Below are positions 1 to 19,611 of a DNA stretch of 19,611 nt, piece by piece. This DNA comes from a virus. Its lineage: Duplodnaviria; Heunggongvirae; Uroviricota; Caudoviricetes. Location: the IMG/VR virus record IMGVR_UViG_2585427757_000001, positions 1 through 19,611 of that record; one strand, 5' to 3'. A model generated the notes under the pieces. The model worked only from the letters and a program-made list of their open reading frames with translations. It was not told the origin of the DNA and ran no database searches. The position numbers and the translations under genes are program-made. Numbering within the stretch: the first letter of the stretch is position 1; each line of letters opens with the position of its first letter.

Positions 1-1
1 G

Positions 2-319
2 CGTGGATGTGCAGGCACAACAACAGACAGTTCGGGTTACTGCGATAAGCATCGCGGTGAAGGCTGGGTGCAGCACCAGCGCGGACTGAGCCGCCACCAG
101 CGTGGCTATGGCTCAAAATGGACGGTGATTCGCGCCCGTATTCTGAAGCGCGATAAAGGTCTGTGTCAGTTGTGTCTGCGTGCCGGTGTGGTGAGCGAGG
201 CGAAAACCGTCGACCACATCATCCCGAAAGCGCATGGCGGAACAGACGCAGACAGCAACCTGCAGAGTCTGTGCTGGCCCTGCCATAAAGCGAAAACAGC
301 GCGCGAACGAATCAGGTGA
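2..319 (+). CDS. HNH (His-Me finger) endonuclease, 5' end cut by the window edge
   Basis: Frame is open from base 2 to the stop at 317-319; the first in-frame start in the ORF track is GTG at 68. Translation contains CQLC...DHIIPKAHGG...N...CWPCH, an HNH motif with paired Cys. It sits directly upstream of the terminase genes, as in HK97-like phages. Confidence 0.8.
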   Translation, partial: RGCAGTTTDSSGYCDKHRGEGWVQHQRGLSRHQRGYGSKWTVIRARILKRDKGLCQLCLRAGVVSEAKTVDHIIPKAHGGTDADSNLQSLCWPCHKAKTARERIR

Positions 320-434
320 TAATTATTCTCACTTGTAGGGAGGGGCGGGGCAAATCCCTACAGCCCTGGCTGTCCGGGACCGCCCCCCTCGTCAAATTTT
401 TACACCCGCGAAATTAAAAATTTCAGGATTTGAC
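320..434. other. Candidate cos / packaging-recognition region between HNH and small terminase
   Basis: 115-bp non-coding gap. It has an 8-bp inverted repeat (tgtaggga 334-341 / tccctaca 355-362) around a G-rich loop (ggggcggggc), a C-rich block (ccgcccccctc 380-390), then an A/T-rich tract (aaatttttac...aaattaaaaattt 395-423). Position between HNH and TerS is where HK97-like phages carry cos. Confidence 0.35.
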
Positions 435-905
435 ATGTCAGAAAAATCTGTTGCGCCCGGAAGAGGGAGAAAGCCGAAGCCGACTACCCGTAAGGAACTG
501 GCAGGCAATCCCGGCAAGCGGGCATTAAATAAGTTTGAACCAAAATTCACGCCGATCACCCATGCTGAGCCTCCCGAGTGGTTTGATGAAACCGCTCGTC
601 ATATGTGGGACACCATTATTCGTGAGCTCTGTGCCCAGCGAGTTCTTTATGTTACTGATTTGCACAACGTCGTTGCATTCTGCACTGCTTTTCGCAACTG
701 GCATGAGTCGCAGCAGGAGGTTATGCGCGTTGGGATTACGGTAGAGAGTGAGGCGGGGCCAAAGAAAAACCCGGCACTCACGGCGGCAAATGAGGCCGCC
801 AGACAAATGGTGACATTCGGTAGTTTATTAGGACTCGATCCTGCCAGTCGGCAGCGGCTTATCACGCCGAAGCAGGGGAGCGATAATCCATTTAAAAACC
901 TATGA
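435..905 (+). CDS. Terminase small subunit (P27-like family)
   Basis: 156-aa ORF with a basic N-terminus ([21 protein letters not shown]), directly upstream of and overlapping the large terminase (ATG 902 inside TGA 903-905). Confidence 0.8.
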
Positions 906-2632
906 CACGAAAAAATTACGTGAACGTTAATGCCGCAAATCAGTATGCACGTGACGTGGTTCGCGGAAAAATTCAGGTTTGCCGTTATGTCGTTCTGGCC
1001 TGCCAGCGTCACCTTGATGACCTGGAAAATTCAGTTAAAAAAAACTATCCGTTTAAATTTGATAAAGATAAAGCTGAGCGGGTGGCGAAATTTATCCAGC
1101 TTTTGCCACACACCAAAGGAGAGTGGGCATTTAAGCGGATGCCCATTACGCTTGAACCCTGGCAGTTGTTCTGTATCTGTGTTGTGTTTGGGTGGGTGAG
1201 AAAAAAGAGCGGTCTGCGTCGATTTCGCGAGGCTTACAACGAAATACCCCGTAAAAACGGGAAATCAGCAATGTCTGCTGGCGTTGGTCTGTATATGTTT
1301 GCCTGCGATGATGAATTTGGCGCTGAAGTGTATTCCGGGGCCACAACAGAGAAACAGGCGTGGGAAGTTTTTCGTCCAGCCAGACTGATGGCGCAACGCA
1401 CGGAGCCATTGCGTGAAGCATTTGGTATTGAAGTACATGCTCAAAGCATGAGCCGTCCGGAGGACGGTGCCCGTTTTGAACCGTTGATTGGAGATCCCGG
1501 AGACGGCGCGTCGCCGAGTTGCGCTCTCATTGATGAATATCACGAGCATCAGACCGATGCACTTTACCAGACGATGCAAACCGGGATGGGGGCACGTCGT
1601 CAGCCGCTGATTTTTGGTATCACCACTGCGGGCTATAACATTGAAGGGCCATGCTACGACAAACGGCGTGAAGTGATCGAAATGCTTGAAGGGATTGTGC
1701 CCAATGATGAACTGTTCGGGATTATTTATACCATTGACGACGGGGATGACTGGACAGATCCGGCGGTATTGCGTAAAGCGAACCCCAATATGGGGATTTC
1801 TGTCTACAGTGATTACCTGTTATCTCAACAGCGCGCGGCAATTAACAACCCACGAAAAGTGGGCGTGTTCAAAACGAAACATCTGAATATCTGGGTGGCA
1901 GCAAAAGACGCCTTCTTCAATCTTGTAAACTGGCAGAAATGTGAGGACAGGAGTCTGACGCTGGAGCGTTTTGAGGGGCATACCTGCATTCTGGCGTTTG
2001 ACCTTGCGCGAAAGCTGGATTTGAACGCAATGGTACGGCTTTTTACCCGAGAGATTGACGGTAAAACGCATTATTATTGTGTCGCACCCAAGTTTTTTGT
2101 TCCCTACGACACAATCTATAGCGCTGATGTGACAGACAGTCGCACAGCAGAACGTTATCAGAAGTGGGTTGAAGGGGGATTTATTACCGTTACCGATGGT
2201 GCGGAAATTGATTACCGGGAGATCCTTGAGTCTGCGAAAGAAGCAAATCGCTTAAACGCAGTGGAGGAGTCACCTATAGATCCCCACGGAGCCACAAACC
2301 TTTCTCACCACCTTGCTGATGAAAACTTAAACCCTATTACCATCATTCAGAACTACACCAATATGTCGGATCCCATGAAGGAACTTGAGGCGGCTATCGA
2401 GGCCGGGCGTTTTCATCATGATGGTAATCCTGTGATGACATGGTGTGTCAGCAACGTGATTGGAAAGCACATTCCCGGCGACGATGATGTTGTTCGTCCG
2501 ATCAAACAAGGTAACGAAAACAAAATCGATGGTGCTGTGGCGCTGATTATGGCGATTGGTCGTTGCATGCTATTTGAGAAAGAAGACACGCTGTCTGATC
2601 ACATTGAGTCCTACGGGATCCGCTCGCTGTAA
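902..2632 (+). CDS. Terminase large subunit
   Basis: 576-aa ORF. N-terminal ATPase region with a Walker A-like GKS motif ([12 protein letters not shown]) and acidic stretches ([17 protein letters not shown]); C-terminal nuclease-like region; typical size and position. Confidence 0.92.
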
Positions 2633-12230: not shown

Positions 12231-12677
12231 TTACTGTGCGAACACGCAATTTCGGCCTGATGGGGAGCCGACAATTCTGGACATTTTTTCGCAAATAACA
12301 GTTACTTGTTCTCCTTTTTTAAGAGCAGCAGCTGTTGATTTTTCAGAGTCTTGCATCTCCATTCTTGCTGGCATGAATTCATTTTCAGTTCTGAATTTAA
12401 TAATTATAGAGTCAGTAAAGTCCTTATCAATGGATTGTACGATACCTCTAACGGCGATTAATTTACCTTTTAACTGTTCATCGGTAGCGACTTCATTTTC
12501 TTCATACTCTTTAAACAGCTGTCGAGCAGTAGTGTTGTAGATTTCTTTTTGCGGTGCCGCAGCTTCCGTATCGGATGAGTATGAAGAATTAGAGCCTTTA
12601 TCGTTATTGCCTGCAAAATATCCAATAATCACCAACCCGATGAAAATATATAAAATCCATTTTAATAATTTCTTCAT
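12231..12677 (-). CDS. Membrane-anchored protein of unknown function with a putative OB-fold-like extracytoplasmic domain; antisense AT-rich moron
   Basis: 148-aa ORF on the opposite strand to the operon. Strong SD on the minus strand (aaggtga, 5 nt before ATG). N-terminal hydrophobic anchor (KKLLKWILYIFIGLVIIGYFAG) without a lipobox Cys, a Ser-rich linker, then a ~100-aa domain (KGKLIAVRGIVQSIDKDFTDSIIIKF...LKKGEQVTVICEK). The surrounding DNA is markedly AT-rich compared with the flanks. Confidence 0.7.
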   Translation of the reverse strand: MKKLLKWILYIFIGLVIIGYFAGNNDKGSNSSYSSDTEAAAPQKEIYNTTARQLFKEYEENEVATDEQLKGKLIAVRGIVQSIDKDFTDSIIIKFRTENEFMPARMEMQDSEKSTAAALKKGEQVTVICEKMSRIVGSPSGRNCVFAQ

Positions 12678-17210: not shown

Positions 17211-17785
17211 CAAACGATGATTACATCCGTCTGTTGTCTGCACTGTTGCCCCCCGGTCCGGCGTGGTCAGCCAGCGATCCGGCGATTGCCGGTGCGGCAT
17301 CGTCATTAACCCGCGTTCATCAGCGTGCGGATGCCCTGATGCGGGAGCTGGATCCGCGCACCACCACCGAACTGATAAACCGCTGGGAGCGTCTGTGCGG
17401 CCTGCCGGATGAATGTATTCCCGCAGGGACACAGACCCTTCGCCAGCGTCAGCAACGACTGGATGCGAAGGTTAACCTGGCGGGCGGCATCAATGAGGAT
17501 TTTTACCTTGCACAGCTTGCTGCCCTGGGCAGACCAGACGCTACCATCACGCGATACGACAAAAGCACGTTCACCTGCTCATCAGCCTGCACTGACGCTG
17601 TGAATGCGCCGGAATGGCGGTATTACTGGCAGGTCAACATGCCAGCCGCCACCAACACCACCTGGATGACATGTGGCGATCCCTGTGATTCCGCACTGCG
17701 TATCTGGGGCGACACCGTTGTCGAGTGTGTGCTTAACAAACTCTGCCCGTCGCATACCTACGTAATTTTTAAATATCCGGAGTAA
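17201..17785 (+). CDS. Mu gp48-like tail protein (YmfQ-like)
   Basis: 194-aa ORF overlapping the J-like gene's 3' end and directly preceding the tail fibre gene; the arrangement is as recalled for Mu-type tails and the e14 remnant. Confidence 0.7.
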
Positions 17786-17788
17786 TCC

Positions 17789-18532
17789 ATGCATCGTATA
17801 GACACGAAAACCGCGCAGAAGGATAAGTTCGGCGCGGGTAAGAACGGTTTTACCCGTGGTAACCCCCAGACTGGCACACCTGCCACCGATCTGGATGATG
17901 ACTACTTTGATATGTTGCAGGAAGAACTCTGCAGCGTGGTGGAGGCATCCGGTGCCAGCCTGGAGAAGGGGCGAAACGACCAGTTGCTTACCGCGCTTCG
18001 TGCTCTGCTGTTAAGCCGCAAGAATCCGTTTGGTGATATCAAATCGGATGGCACCGTGAAAACAGCTCTCGAAAACCTTGGTTTGGGAGAAGCGGCAAAA
18101 CGGAATGTGGGCAACGGGGAAAACCAAATCCCTGATATGTCTTTCTGGACGGTTACTGGTGGCAATGGAAATTTTGTGATTCGTCAACCTGACGGGCTAA
18201 TCATTCAGATGGTTACTGTAAGTATAAGCGGCCCGGTGGCGATGAATGGAATGACTGATAATGCTTATGCCATTACAGGTTCTAATAAGTCTTATATTGC
18301 CACAGCCACATTGCCCTTTGTATTTCCTAATAAGGTGCTGGGCGTTATCCCTCTGGTATCAACAACAGCTTATGGTGGTGTATCCAGTAATATTACAGGT
18401 TCATACGCGACTGCGGTTTGTTCTTTTGCCGCTGTCAGGGGAAATAATACGATTGTGTTCAAAGTCGACAAACCACTGAATGCAGCCTTTCCTTCAGATA
18501 CCAGCGTCTCAGCGTTAATCATTGGACGGTAA
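17789..18532 (+). CDS. Tail fibre protein: constant N-terminal part plus variable C-terminal receptor-binding part
   Basis: 247-aa ORF with SD ggagt (17779-17783). The N-terminus ([26 protein letters not shown]...) resembles the conserved start of Mu/P2-type fibres. Composition becomes AT-richer after about 18100. The gene contains the candidate invertase crossover site at 18066-18091. Confidence 0.8.
18066..18091. other. Candidate site-specific invertase crossover site (hix/gix/pix-like 26-mer)
   Basis: ctctcgaaaacc-tt-ggtttgggagaa; the reverse complement is TTCTCCCAAACC AA GGTTTTCGAGAG. Two imperfect 12-bp inverted half-sites flank a central dinucleotide, matching the TTCTnnnAAACCAAGGTTTnnGAnAn pattern of Hin/Gin/Cin/Pin sites. 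It lies inside the fibre gene at the constant/variable boundary. Confidence 0.55.
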
Positions 18533-18534
18533 GA

Positions 18535-18978
18535 ATGAACTCAGTATTCTTTTCACCCGGAAGTAAAAGTTTTTATCTGCAAGAATTGTTTCCAGAATAT
18601 GAGGATGCGGGAACGCTTCCTGATGATGTTATTGAAATTACCAGAGAAACATATGAGCAATTTCTTGGGCTGCATCCAGAAGGGAAAGAAATTGGCGCTG
18701 ACAGTTCAGGACGGCCAGTATGGATTAATTCCCCACCCCCTTCAAAAGAGGATGAGGTGTTGACGGCTGAAATGAAAAAAATATCTTTGGTTTCTGAAGT
18801 CAATACCTACATCAATACTCATCAGTGGCCTGGCAAAGCGGCGATTGGTCGTCTGAAAAGTGAGGAACTGGCGCAATATAATTTGTGGCTGGATTATCTG
18901 GACGCACTGGAACTGGTTGATACCTCCAGTGCTCCAGATATTGAATGGCCTACGCCTCCGGCAGTTCAGGCCAGATGA
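18535..18978 (+). CDS. Tail fibre assembly protein (Tfa)
   Basis: 147-aa ORF directly after the fibre gene; C-terminus (...LDYLDALELVDTSSAPDIEWPTPP...) shows the Tfa-type motif. Confidence 0.8.
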   Translation: MNSVFFSPGSKSFYLQELFPEYEDAGTLPDDVIEITRETYEQFLGLHPEGKEIGADSSGRPVWINSPPPSKEDEVLTAEMKKISLVSEVNTYINTHQWPGKAAIGRLKSEELAQYNLWLDYLDALELVDTSSAPDIEWPTPPAVQAR

Positions 18979-19552
18979 CATCCGGCGCGGTGCTGGTATC
19001 TGTTGCCGTCACCGTGTCAATGTAATCCAGCACAGCGTTAAGGCGAGTGATTTCTGCTTGCGTCAGCTGCCGCCCGGCCTGTAATTTCAGCTGAATCAGA
19101 CTGATGGAAGCCATAGCAGCATCAATCAGCGACTGGCGCTGTGCTTCTGCCACGTCTACTGCGGCGCTATGCTGTGCCTCAGTATCGGTCACCCATTTCT
19201 CACCATCCCATTTATCGAATGGCGTTAACGGGGCGATAGTAGTTGTATTTTCAGGGTAATCACCCGGAGCTGTGATTTCTTTTGATTCTCCTGTTTCAGT
19301 GCTATATACCGTTTCACCGCGATGATCTGGCACATATTCCCATGAGTTAAAATCTGCAGAACGGCAAATTGCATAACCAGCTTTATATGAGCCAGGAGCA
19401 TCTAAACAGGAACATGCCGGAATACCGACGCCAACCGCAAGATATTCAGTTGATGTGGAAATATATTCCCGCGTTTCACCATCATAATTATAAATGGTAA
19501 TGTCTCCCGCTTTTATGGCAATGAGTTCGTTATTTAATACGGCTTTATTCAT
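18950..19552 (-). CDS. Second tail fibre assembly protein, inverted orientation (Tfa')
   Basis: 200-aa minus-strand ORF with SD on the minus strand (gaggg, 6 nt before ATG). Its C-terminus (...LDYIDTVTATDTSTAPDVIWPELPEA) parallels the + strand Tfa C-terminus; the two genes converge and overlap by 29 bp (18950-18978). Confidence 0.8.
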   Translation of the reverse strand: MNKAVLNNELIAIKAGDITIYNYDGETREYISTSTEYLAVGVGIPACSCLDAPGSYKAGYAICRSADFNSWEYVPDHRGETVYSTETGESKEITAPGDYPENTTTIAPLTPFDKWDGEKWVTDTEAQHSAAVDVAEAQRQSLIDAAMASISLIQLKLQAGRQLTQAEITRLNAVLDYIDTVTATDTSTAPDVIWPELPEA

Positions 19553-19562
19553 CAGGCAGCCC

Positions 19563-19611
19563 TCACGATATAATTAAAGGCAATGTTACGAGGACGGTTT
19601 TCGTTTGCAGT
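19563..19611 (-). CDS. 3' end of an alternative tail-fibre variable segment, inverted orientation; partial, continues beyond the window
   Basis: Minus-strand frame open from the window edge to a stop at 19563-19565 (...LQTKTVLVTLPLIIS*), ending 10 nt before the Tfa' start. Called from context only: 16 codons are visible. Confidence 0.35.
   Translation of the reverse strand, partial: LQTKTVLVTLPLIIS

Follow-up and report, generated by a model that had tools for sequence, protein, structure and literature searches.

Where does the packaged genome of this prophage begin and end? The window, by which we mean the whole 19,611 nt stretch of viral DNA analysed here, opens inside an HNH endonuclease gene and runs across a short intergenic gap into the terminase genes. 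A sequence-only reading had proposed that a cos site lies in this gap and that packaged genomes would start and end there. Homology to the defined ends of phages phiP27, SfI and HK97 supports that proposal: positions 338–423 are very probably the cos site of a temperate phiP27/SfV-like myovirus prophage with an HK97-type, HNH-assisted terminase. This assignment would fix the start and end of the packaged genome for the window and give the prophage a complete cos-type packaging module.

The packaging genes around the gap

The gap is bordered by the genes of an HNH-assisted packaging machine. On its left lies the 3′ part of the HNH gene (1–319, + strand, 105 of 116 codons), open in frame 2 up to a TGA stop at 317–319; the complete gene, encoding 116 aa, is present in the nearest E. 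coli relative (L127). The translation of 1–319 matches the Pfam HNH family (E=2.9e-16), with both CxxC pairs and the DH...N...H motif intact. The protein is 80% identical in amino acid sequence to the HNH protein of SfI and 34% identical over 70 aa to HK97 gp74 (E=1e-10), and its closest solved structure is 5h0m (E=3.3e-13). On the right, after the gap at 320–434, come terS, which encodes a small terminase subunit of the P27 family (435–905, + strand; Pfam Terminase_4, E=2e-22), and terL, which encodes the large subunit (902–2632, + strand; Pfam TerL_ATPase and TerL_nuclease). Open reading frames and Pfam matches thus bear out the earlier description of an HNH gene adjoining the terminase genes across 115 bp.

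The large subunit and the genes that follow it tie the module to HK97. TerL is 25% identical to HK97 gp2 over 510 aa (E=9e-24), and the head module downstream of it is HK97-like, with Pfam matches to Phage_portal, Peptidase_S78 (prohead protease) and Phage_capsid (HK97-fold). The locus has the composition of an HK97-type module: an HNH gene next to cos and terminase, a gp2-homologous TerL, and an HK97-like portal, protease and capsid. This arrangement of HNH gene, cos and terminase has already been described for HNH-assisted packaging of the HK97 type (PMC11331095, PMC3592412). Further along the window lies a contractile tail of the Mu/SfV-like type, and every packaging and structural ORF of the window is full length. 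Terminases of the Nu1 or gpA type were not found, Pfam returning only Terminase_4 and TerL_ATPase/TerL_nuclease. PADLOC gave no match for three small or odd ORFs, and no inverted repeats of at least 16 bp were found around the facing tail-fibre assembly genes.

The small subunit is the one part of the machine that cannot be traced to HK97 by sequence. TerS of the window is 50% identical to that of SfI, and both belong to the P27 family. It shows no detectable sequence similarity to HK97 gp1 (BLASTP E=44; hhalign probability 0.1%), an arginine-clamp nonamer to which no Pfam family is assigned, and sequence and profile searches of the P27-family TerS against the PDB returned no match. Because the sequence of TerS resembles neither gp1 nor any solved structure, the HK97 model of TerS–DNA recognition applies here by analogy rather than by homology.

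A ten-base-pair box aligned with three defined phage ends

The nearest annotated relative already carries a cos feature at the corresponding place. Positions 1–1000 of the window, covering HNH, the gap, terS and the start of terL, are 97.7% identical in DNA to the Stx2e phage phiP27. Its two GenBank entries (AJ298298 and NC_003356) each contain a misc_feature labelled 'cos-site' at 21806–21815, 10 bp long, with the sequence CGCCCGCCCC, placed between the HNH gene L34 and the terS gene L35. Pairwise alignment brings this feature onto window positions 381–390 (+ strand), where the window reads CGCCCCCCTC and 8 of 10 box positions are identical. Gene order, box position, flanks, G-rich block and right half are the same in the two genomes; the box itself differs by two changes.

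Ends determined on virion DNA fall in the same register. Run-off sequencing of SfI virion DNA, compared with the prophage sequence, left a 10-nt gap, TGCCCGCCCC, from which its authors concluded that SfI is packaged from cos, as had been postulated for SfV (PMC3636060). Joining the end of the SfI record to its start puts TGCCCGCCCC in exact register with window 381–390.

HK97 provides a third end from a more distant phage. Its GenBank record closes with GGGGGGGGGATCAAATCTTCAAAACCTTTGCCCCAAATGAC followed by CGCCGCCAAA and starts with GTTTGAATTTAACGCTAACCCGATTTTTTTAG. The numbering used in the structural work on HK97 TerS (T16, the A-tract, the C/G pairs near 21) matches that of GenBank, which places the top-strand cut at the record junction (PMC11331095). 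A further report gives HK97 10-nt 3′ overhangs and states that the HNH protein gp74 stimulates cos cleavage in vitro (PMC9410871). With the cut at the junction and 3′ overhangs of this length, the overhang is made up of the final 10 nt of the record. The HK97 left half, GGGGGGGGGATCAAATC-N22-GAC before CGCCGCCAAA and then G, aligns to the window with no gaps. Numbered leftward from the box and rightward from the predicted top-strand cut, the correspondences are the G run, CAAATC at −30 to −25 (ATCAAATC at −31 to −25), GAC at −3 to −1, a 10-mer starting with CGCC, and G at +1 (G391 of the window). HK97 fits this register though none of the DNA patterns that we used had picked it. Downstream of the cut both sites have an ACCCG step followed by an A/T tract, and both TerL and HNH are homologous. 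HK97 differs in the position of CCCG (+19 to +22, against +15 to +18 here), in its distance from HNH to cos (~320 bp, against 61 bp here), in a TerS unrelated at the sequence level, and in being a siphovirus, whereas the prophage here has a Mu/SfV-like contractile tail.

The ends of three phages, each defined independently, thus fall together at 381–390, and comparison with the cos sites of related phages, the check that the sequence-only reading had proposed, comes out in favour of its claim. By this homology the box is the cohesive end (cosN core). At the right genome end it is predicted to protrude as a 3′ single-stranded extension, and the left end would carry its complement. We infer the 3′ polarity in the SfI/P27 lineage from HK97 and from the SfI run-off gap, where the reads lack the 10 nt instead of overlapping there, as expected for 3′ extensions. 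Full-text literature searches with the overhang strings returned only unrelated papers.

The bases next to the box suggest how it may be cut. On the left stands GAC (378–380), at whose edge the bottom-strand nick is predicted (380/381). It reaches maximum conservation in our 36-site profile, a value to be read with the caveat that the last three bases of the search pattern forced GAC on the pattern-seeded loci; GAC is also kept in loci gathered through TerS and in HK97, while a minority class of loci gathered through HNH has TAC. On the right stands GTC (391–393), with the top-strand nick predicted at 390/391. This flank varies more: it is ATC in SfV-type sites, GTT in HK97 and CCC in a third class of right halves. 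Given these flanks, GAC and GTC, each predicted nick lies 5′ of a GTC on its own strand. The same symmetry holds in P27-type sites and in SfI-type sites with G at +1, is weaker in HK97 and most SfV-type sites, and is absent from the CCC class.

The box of the window carries one private base. The box variants found in nature include TGCCCGCCCC, CGCCCGCCCC, CGCCCGCCTC, CGCCCGCCTA, GGCCCGCTTG, CGCCGCCTCA and CGCCCCCCTA, with CGCCGCCAAA in HK97. Relative to phiP27, the C-to-T change at box position 9 is common to other E. coli prophages, while the G-to-C change at position 6 (window position 386) is private. Position 386 is the sole difference from the nearest E. coli genome (99.9% identity over 1000 bp), which has G there, as do 8 of 8 close relatives examined. 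The exact variant of the window is absent from IMG/VR, the JGI metagenomes and the GTDB representative genomes. A megablast search of E. coli genomes with 53 nt spanning the cut also gave no match, presumably an effect of low-complexity filtering.

Such a change in the middle of the cut site could reduce nicking, and the locus could then be a dead relic of cos, in a cryptic prophage left unable to cut by the base at 386 or by defects outside the window. That C386 is the only change in 1000 bp, with every close relative keeping G and the variant missing from three large collections, speaks for this possibility. Against it, box position 6 is naturally variable, and the classes CGCCCCCCTA and CGCCGCCTCA carry C there; CGCCCCCCTA is identical to the window box at 9 of 10 positions and differs only in the last base. 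The GAC and GTC flanks and box positions 2–4 and 7 are intact, as are the packaging and structural ORFs of the window, and the change could itself be a base-calling error in a run of C. Given the natural variability of position 6 and the near-identity of the CGCCCCCCTA class, we expect the site to work, and consider a dead cos improbable.

Conserved elements and folding on either side of the cut

Comparison of related loci separates what is constant at this cos from what varies. We gathered sites by a pattern scan that specified only GGAC-N10 plus the right half (120 IMG/VR loci), and further sets seeded by TerS (22 loci) and by HNH (80 loci), and built a conservation profile from 36 non-redundant cos regions, in which the conservation of the right half is partly imposed by the search pattern. 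Conserved elements of the profile are the G block, CAAA, GAC, TC at +2/+3, the T-run, ACCCGCG and the A/T tract. Within the box, positions 2, 3, 4 and 7 are conserved and positions 1, 5, 6, 8, 9 and 10 are variable. The window has the full phiP27/SfV-type architecture: G block and CAAAT at −43 to −25, GAC at −3 to −1, RTC, T-run and ACCCGCG.

Upstream of the box, a G-rich block (338–350) and CAAATC (351–356) together form an element at −43 to −25. Although the search pattern did not include the G block, nearly all loci have it, at a constant distance from the box, and the G block with CAAA recurs in the TerS-seeded and HNH-seeded loci, in HK97 and in a Gilliamella prophage. We regard this element as a candidate termination or nuclease-docking subsite comparable to cosQ of lambda. 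It always accompanies the HNH gene while right half and TerS are exchanged. Tentatively, it may be a cos subsite that has so far gone uncharacterised, at which HNH or the TerL nuclease docks or which acts in a cosQ-like termination. No element of this type is described in the HK97 packaging literature that we examined.

Between this element and GAC lies a variable spacer (357–377). Its region holds the palindromes ACAGCC-CT-GGCTGT (360–373) and GTCCGGGAC (372–380). Dyad symmetry in the spacer is marginal: among 16 distinct spacers the mean best stem is 3.69, against 3.29 in shuffles, and 45 of 1000 shuffles score as high.

The right half (394–423) comprises a T-run, ACCCGCG at +14 to +20 and a 13-bp A/T tract at +21 to +33, the last two strongly conserved. 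CGCGAAATTAAAAATTT (407–423) is invariant in TerS-seeded loci whose TerS proteins are only 51–54% identical, which indicates strong selection on this non-coding DNA. HK97 offers a parallel: its TerS site spans +15 to +29 and consists of C/G base pairs and then a 9-bp A-tract, and the protein reads one G:C pair together with the shape of the adjoining A-tract, 15–29 bp downstream of the cut (PMC11331095). On these grounds the right half of the window is a candidate small-terminase recognition site, comparable to cosB.

A short motif, GTCAAATCC, recurs around these elements. Direct copies lie at 350–358 (GCAAATCCC) and at 391–397 (GTCAAAT), and an inverted copy on the minus strand (426–434) abuts the terS start codon, so that 351–357 pairs with 426–432 and 391–397 with 428–434 as perfect 7-bp inverted repeats. 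In TerS-seeded loci the motif persists in a diverged form, GTTGAC or ATTGAC, and it is absent from SfV-type right halves.

The sequence-only reading had suggested that the A/T tract could be a bending-protein site, and an IHF site like I1 of lambda cosB is the form in which we weighed it. A/T-rich tracts (394–402 and 411–423) are indeed present and adjoin the cut, and TCAA-N4-TTA at 392–402 is, by eye, a partial match at 7 of 9 positions. The IHF consensus WATCAANNNNTTR, however, does not occur in 320–434 with at most one mismatch, and its 14 matches elsewhere in the window are what chance would give (12.3 expected). In HK97, moreover, it is TerS that recognises the equivalent A-tract, by its DNA shape (PMC11331095). 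A place in the candidate small-terminase recognition region accounts for the A/T tract better, and we hold an IHF site here to be unlikely.

The same reading had called the gap structured and GC-rich, and its predicted structure is indeed stronger than chance would give. Folded as single-stranded DNA, the gap reaches −22.1 kcal/mol, whereas 200 dinucleotide-shuffled versions give −13.7 ± 2.4 (z=−3.5) and none of the 200 does as well; as RNA its z-score is −2.1. Several repeats are visible. A perfect 8-bp inverted repeat, TGTAGGGA at 334–341 and TCCCTACA at 355–362, flanks the G-rich run GGGGCGGGGC (342–351). A perfect 9-bp inverted repeat, AAATTTTTA/TAAAAATTT (394–402/415–423), surrounds CACCCGCGAAAT; among 2000 dinucleotide shuffles, 1.9% contain a perfect inverted-repeat arm of 9 bp or more. 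Finally, CCGCCCCCCTC at 380–390 is 82% complementary to GAGGGGCGGGG at 340–350.

The 8-bp repeat and the G/C complementarity, which had drawn attention to the gap, exist in the window without looking maintained across relatives. The 8-bp repeat is lineage-specific: scored in register across 73 distinct left halves, it reaches 8/8 only in the window and in L127, whose left half is identical, and it scores 0–7/8 in the 71 others, with whole classes at 0–2/8. We therefore dropped the 8-bp hairpin as a conserved feature of cos. The C-rich block that had been paired with the G run is there, and its complementarity is real; it is the cohesive end itself by the alignments above, and not the arm of a structural repeat. 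An inverted repeat maintained between G block and overhang is likewise not clearly supported. The G consensus is kept alongside the overhangs CGCCGCCTCA, GGCCCGCTTG and CGCCGCCAAA, and since the block stays G-rich whatever the overhang, the complementarity does not look maintained. Some of it persists, both partners being G- or C-rich.

The GC-rich segment might instead be a regulatory hairpin in RNA or DNA, for instance a terminator, a target for antitermination or a site of mRNA processing, lying between the lysis/HNH and terminase genes. The folding excess would suit such a role, and stem changes among close relatives are transitions that would keep G-U pairs. Yet terminator-like sites number 0 against 1.2 expected, a terminator and promoter scan of the gap found nothing, and Rfam gave no match at E≤1. 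What the other left halves share is not the stem but the G run and CAAA, set at a constant distance from the cut even in HK97, where the flanks are different. We regard this alternative as very improbable. Headful (pac) packaging with a merely intergenic gap, for which we found no supporting point, is more remote still: the large terminase is HK97-type, cohesive ends have been defined in the nearest characterised relatives, and the non-coding DNA is conserved far beyond the divergence of the coding sequence.

A packaging model, its relatives and mosaicism at the cut

A cos site at 338–423 suggests a route by which the prophage genome could be packaged. On a concatemer, the P27-family TerS would bind the right half at 394–423, a few base pairs inside the DNA to be packaged, and would position TerL, which would act together with the HNH protein encoded just upstream. 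Two nicks 10 bp apart, the top one at 390/391 and the bottom one at 380/381, each 5′ of GTC, would leave 10-nt 3′ extensions: the right end would carry 5′-CGCCCCCCTC-3′ and the left end the complementary sequence. Packaging would proceed rightward, first through terS and terL, then the head and tail genes, then the rest of the genome. On approaching the next cos, the motor would meet the G-rich/CAAATC element at 338–356 about three helical turns before the cut, where its role would probably be in termination, like that of cosQ in lambda, or in nuclease docking.

The layout recalls lambda, with several differences. Lambda likewise has a G/C-rich cohesive end followed by an A/T-rich stretch. Its overhangs are 12-nt and 5′, it is not known to have an HNH partner, and its TerS is of the Nu1 type, acting at R sites and with an IHF site, whereas the IHF consensus is absent from the window gap. 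The lambda cos is tripartite, with an upstream termination element, a nicking site and a downstream small-terminase region by the terS gene (PMC6739421). The window would share this tripartite logic, the cosQ-like role of the G block being the part that we infer.

Closer to the window, the sites of SfI, SfII, SfIV and SfV share the G block, the GAC flank, the T-run and the ACCCGCG box. They differ in a right half that diverges beyond ACCCGCGAAA and has no GTCAAAT copies, in a box that starts with T, and in A at +1 in most SfV-type sites.

The site is of a known kind. With cos already annotated in a phage 97.7% identical over this region, the finding is correct but ordinary, and it reveals no new kind of system; novelty, if any, lies in the fixed-distance G block shared with HK97. 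What the comparison adds is a base-resolution map of cos of the HK97/P27/SfV type, in which the G block, GAC, 4 of 10 overhang positions and the right-half box are conserved, and the spacer and 6 of 10 overhang positions are variable. The map should help in annotating prophage ends and in the design of cos plasmids.

The window combines segments of two lineages. From 923 onward it is ~94% identical in DNA to SfI, SfII and SfIV, against ~86% to phiP27 from terL onward. Judged from these identities, the prophage is a mosaic that carries the phiP27 cos site, with P27-type HNH, cos and terS joined to SfI-type genes from terL through the tail.

Exchange between lineages also marks the cut itself. 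Three IMG/VR contigs end near cos (L079, L083 and L027), none of them at a predicted nick; at 11–31 nt away, these ends are uninformative about the termini. Many E. coli prophage matches to positions 1–1000 stop at query position 385, 388 or 413. One locus (L158) is identical to the relatives of the window up to CGCCCGCC and then continues with an unrelated right half and a different terS and terL, and in another (L159) an SfV-type right half takes over precisely where the box ends. In the HNH-seeded set, one and the same left half is joined to three or more types of right half. Junctions in the box or at its edge are expected if these are physical DNA ends able to anneal between lineages, and they point to lineages recombining exactly at the cohesive end.

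Lineage junctions at the cohesive-end box and the terS/terL boundary

The predicted cohesive end, a 10-bp box at window 381–390 in the gap between the HNH and small terminase (terS) genes, coincides with breaks in phage lineage. Aligning the E. coli prophage loci L158 (strain E300082, record pE300082_261) and L159 (strain JNE23-001) to window 381–391 placed lineage junctions within or at the edge of the box. One left half, comprising the HNH gene and G block, adjoins any of three mutually unrelated right halves, whose terS genes differ. For E. coli E300082 this prophage region is listed twice, on a 262-kb plasmid-annotated record and on the strain's chromosome record.

A second mosaic junction, marked by a shift in DNA identity, lies at the terS/terL boundary (window 902–923). 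HNH, cos and terS are phiP27-like, at 97.7% identity, whereas DNA from position 923 on is ~94% identical to Shigella phages SfI, SfII and SfIV and only ~86% identical to phiP27. Both TerS types share an ...NPF motif at the C-terminus.

Conservation and variation of the cos site

The cos architecture of the window recurs in the bee-gut genome Gilliamella sp. wkB178 (L160, 2250–2450), where the G block is followed by CAAATC, GAC, CGCCCCCCTA, GTC, a T-run and AACCGCG, together with a P27-family terS. The design therefore reaches beyond Enterobacteriaceae. Within the right half, a perfect 9-bp inverted repeat, AAATTTTTA (394–402) and TAAAAATTT (415–423), flanks the conserved ACCCGCG box, and SfV-type sites retain a T5...A5 form of the repeat. 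This repeat may reflect reading of the site by the small terminase.

Mid-box, window position 386 is a private C, with G in every relative checked; it is the sole mismatch to the nearest E. coli genome across 1000 bp. Because this C creates a six-C run, it is possibly a base-calling error.

For the overhang of HK97, an HNH-assisted cos phage, we adopted 10-nt 3', as given in the Figure 1 legend of PMC9410871 and also by PMC11331095. The discussion of PMC9410871 disagrees with its own legend, giving '12-nt 3'' for HK97 and '10-nt 5'' for lambda; the two numbers appear to have been swapped there.

Tail-fibre assembly genes and additional reading frames

Two genes matching the tail-fibre assembly family Caudo_TAP (18535–18978, plus strand; 18950–19552, minus strand) converge with a 29-bp overlap, a facing arrangement resembling invertible tail-fibre segments of Mu/e14-type phages. 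A search across 17700–19611 found no inverted repeats of at least 16 bp, and the window contains no invertase gene.

Between the tape-measure and DNA-circulation genes, on the opposite (minus) strand, a 148-aa ORF (12231–12677) matches the tRNA_anti-like OB-fold domain at E=2.9e-19. This ORF resembles an inserted 'moron', and PADLOC returned no defence-family match for it. Neither Pfam nor PADLOC matched a 60-aa ORF (2644–2826) that separates terL from the portal gene; its counterpart in the nearest E. coli genome is annotated YmfR, an e14 prophage gene name.
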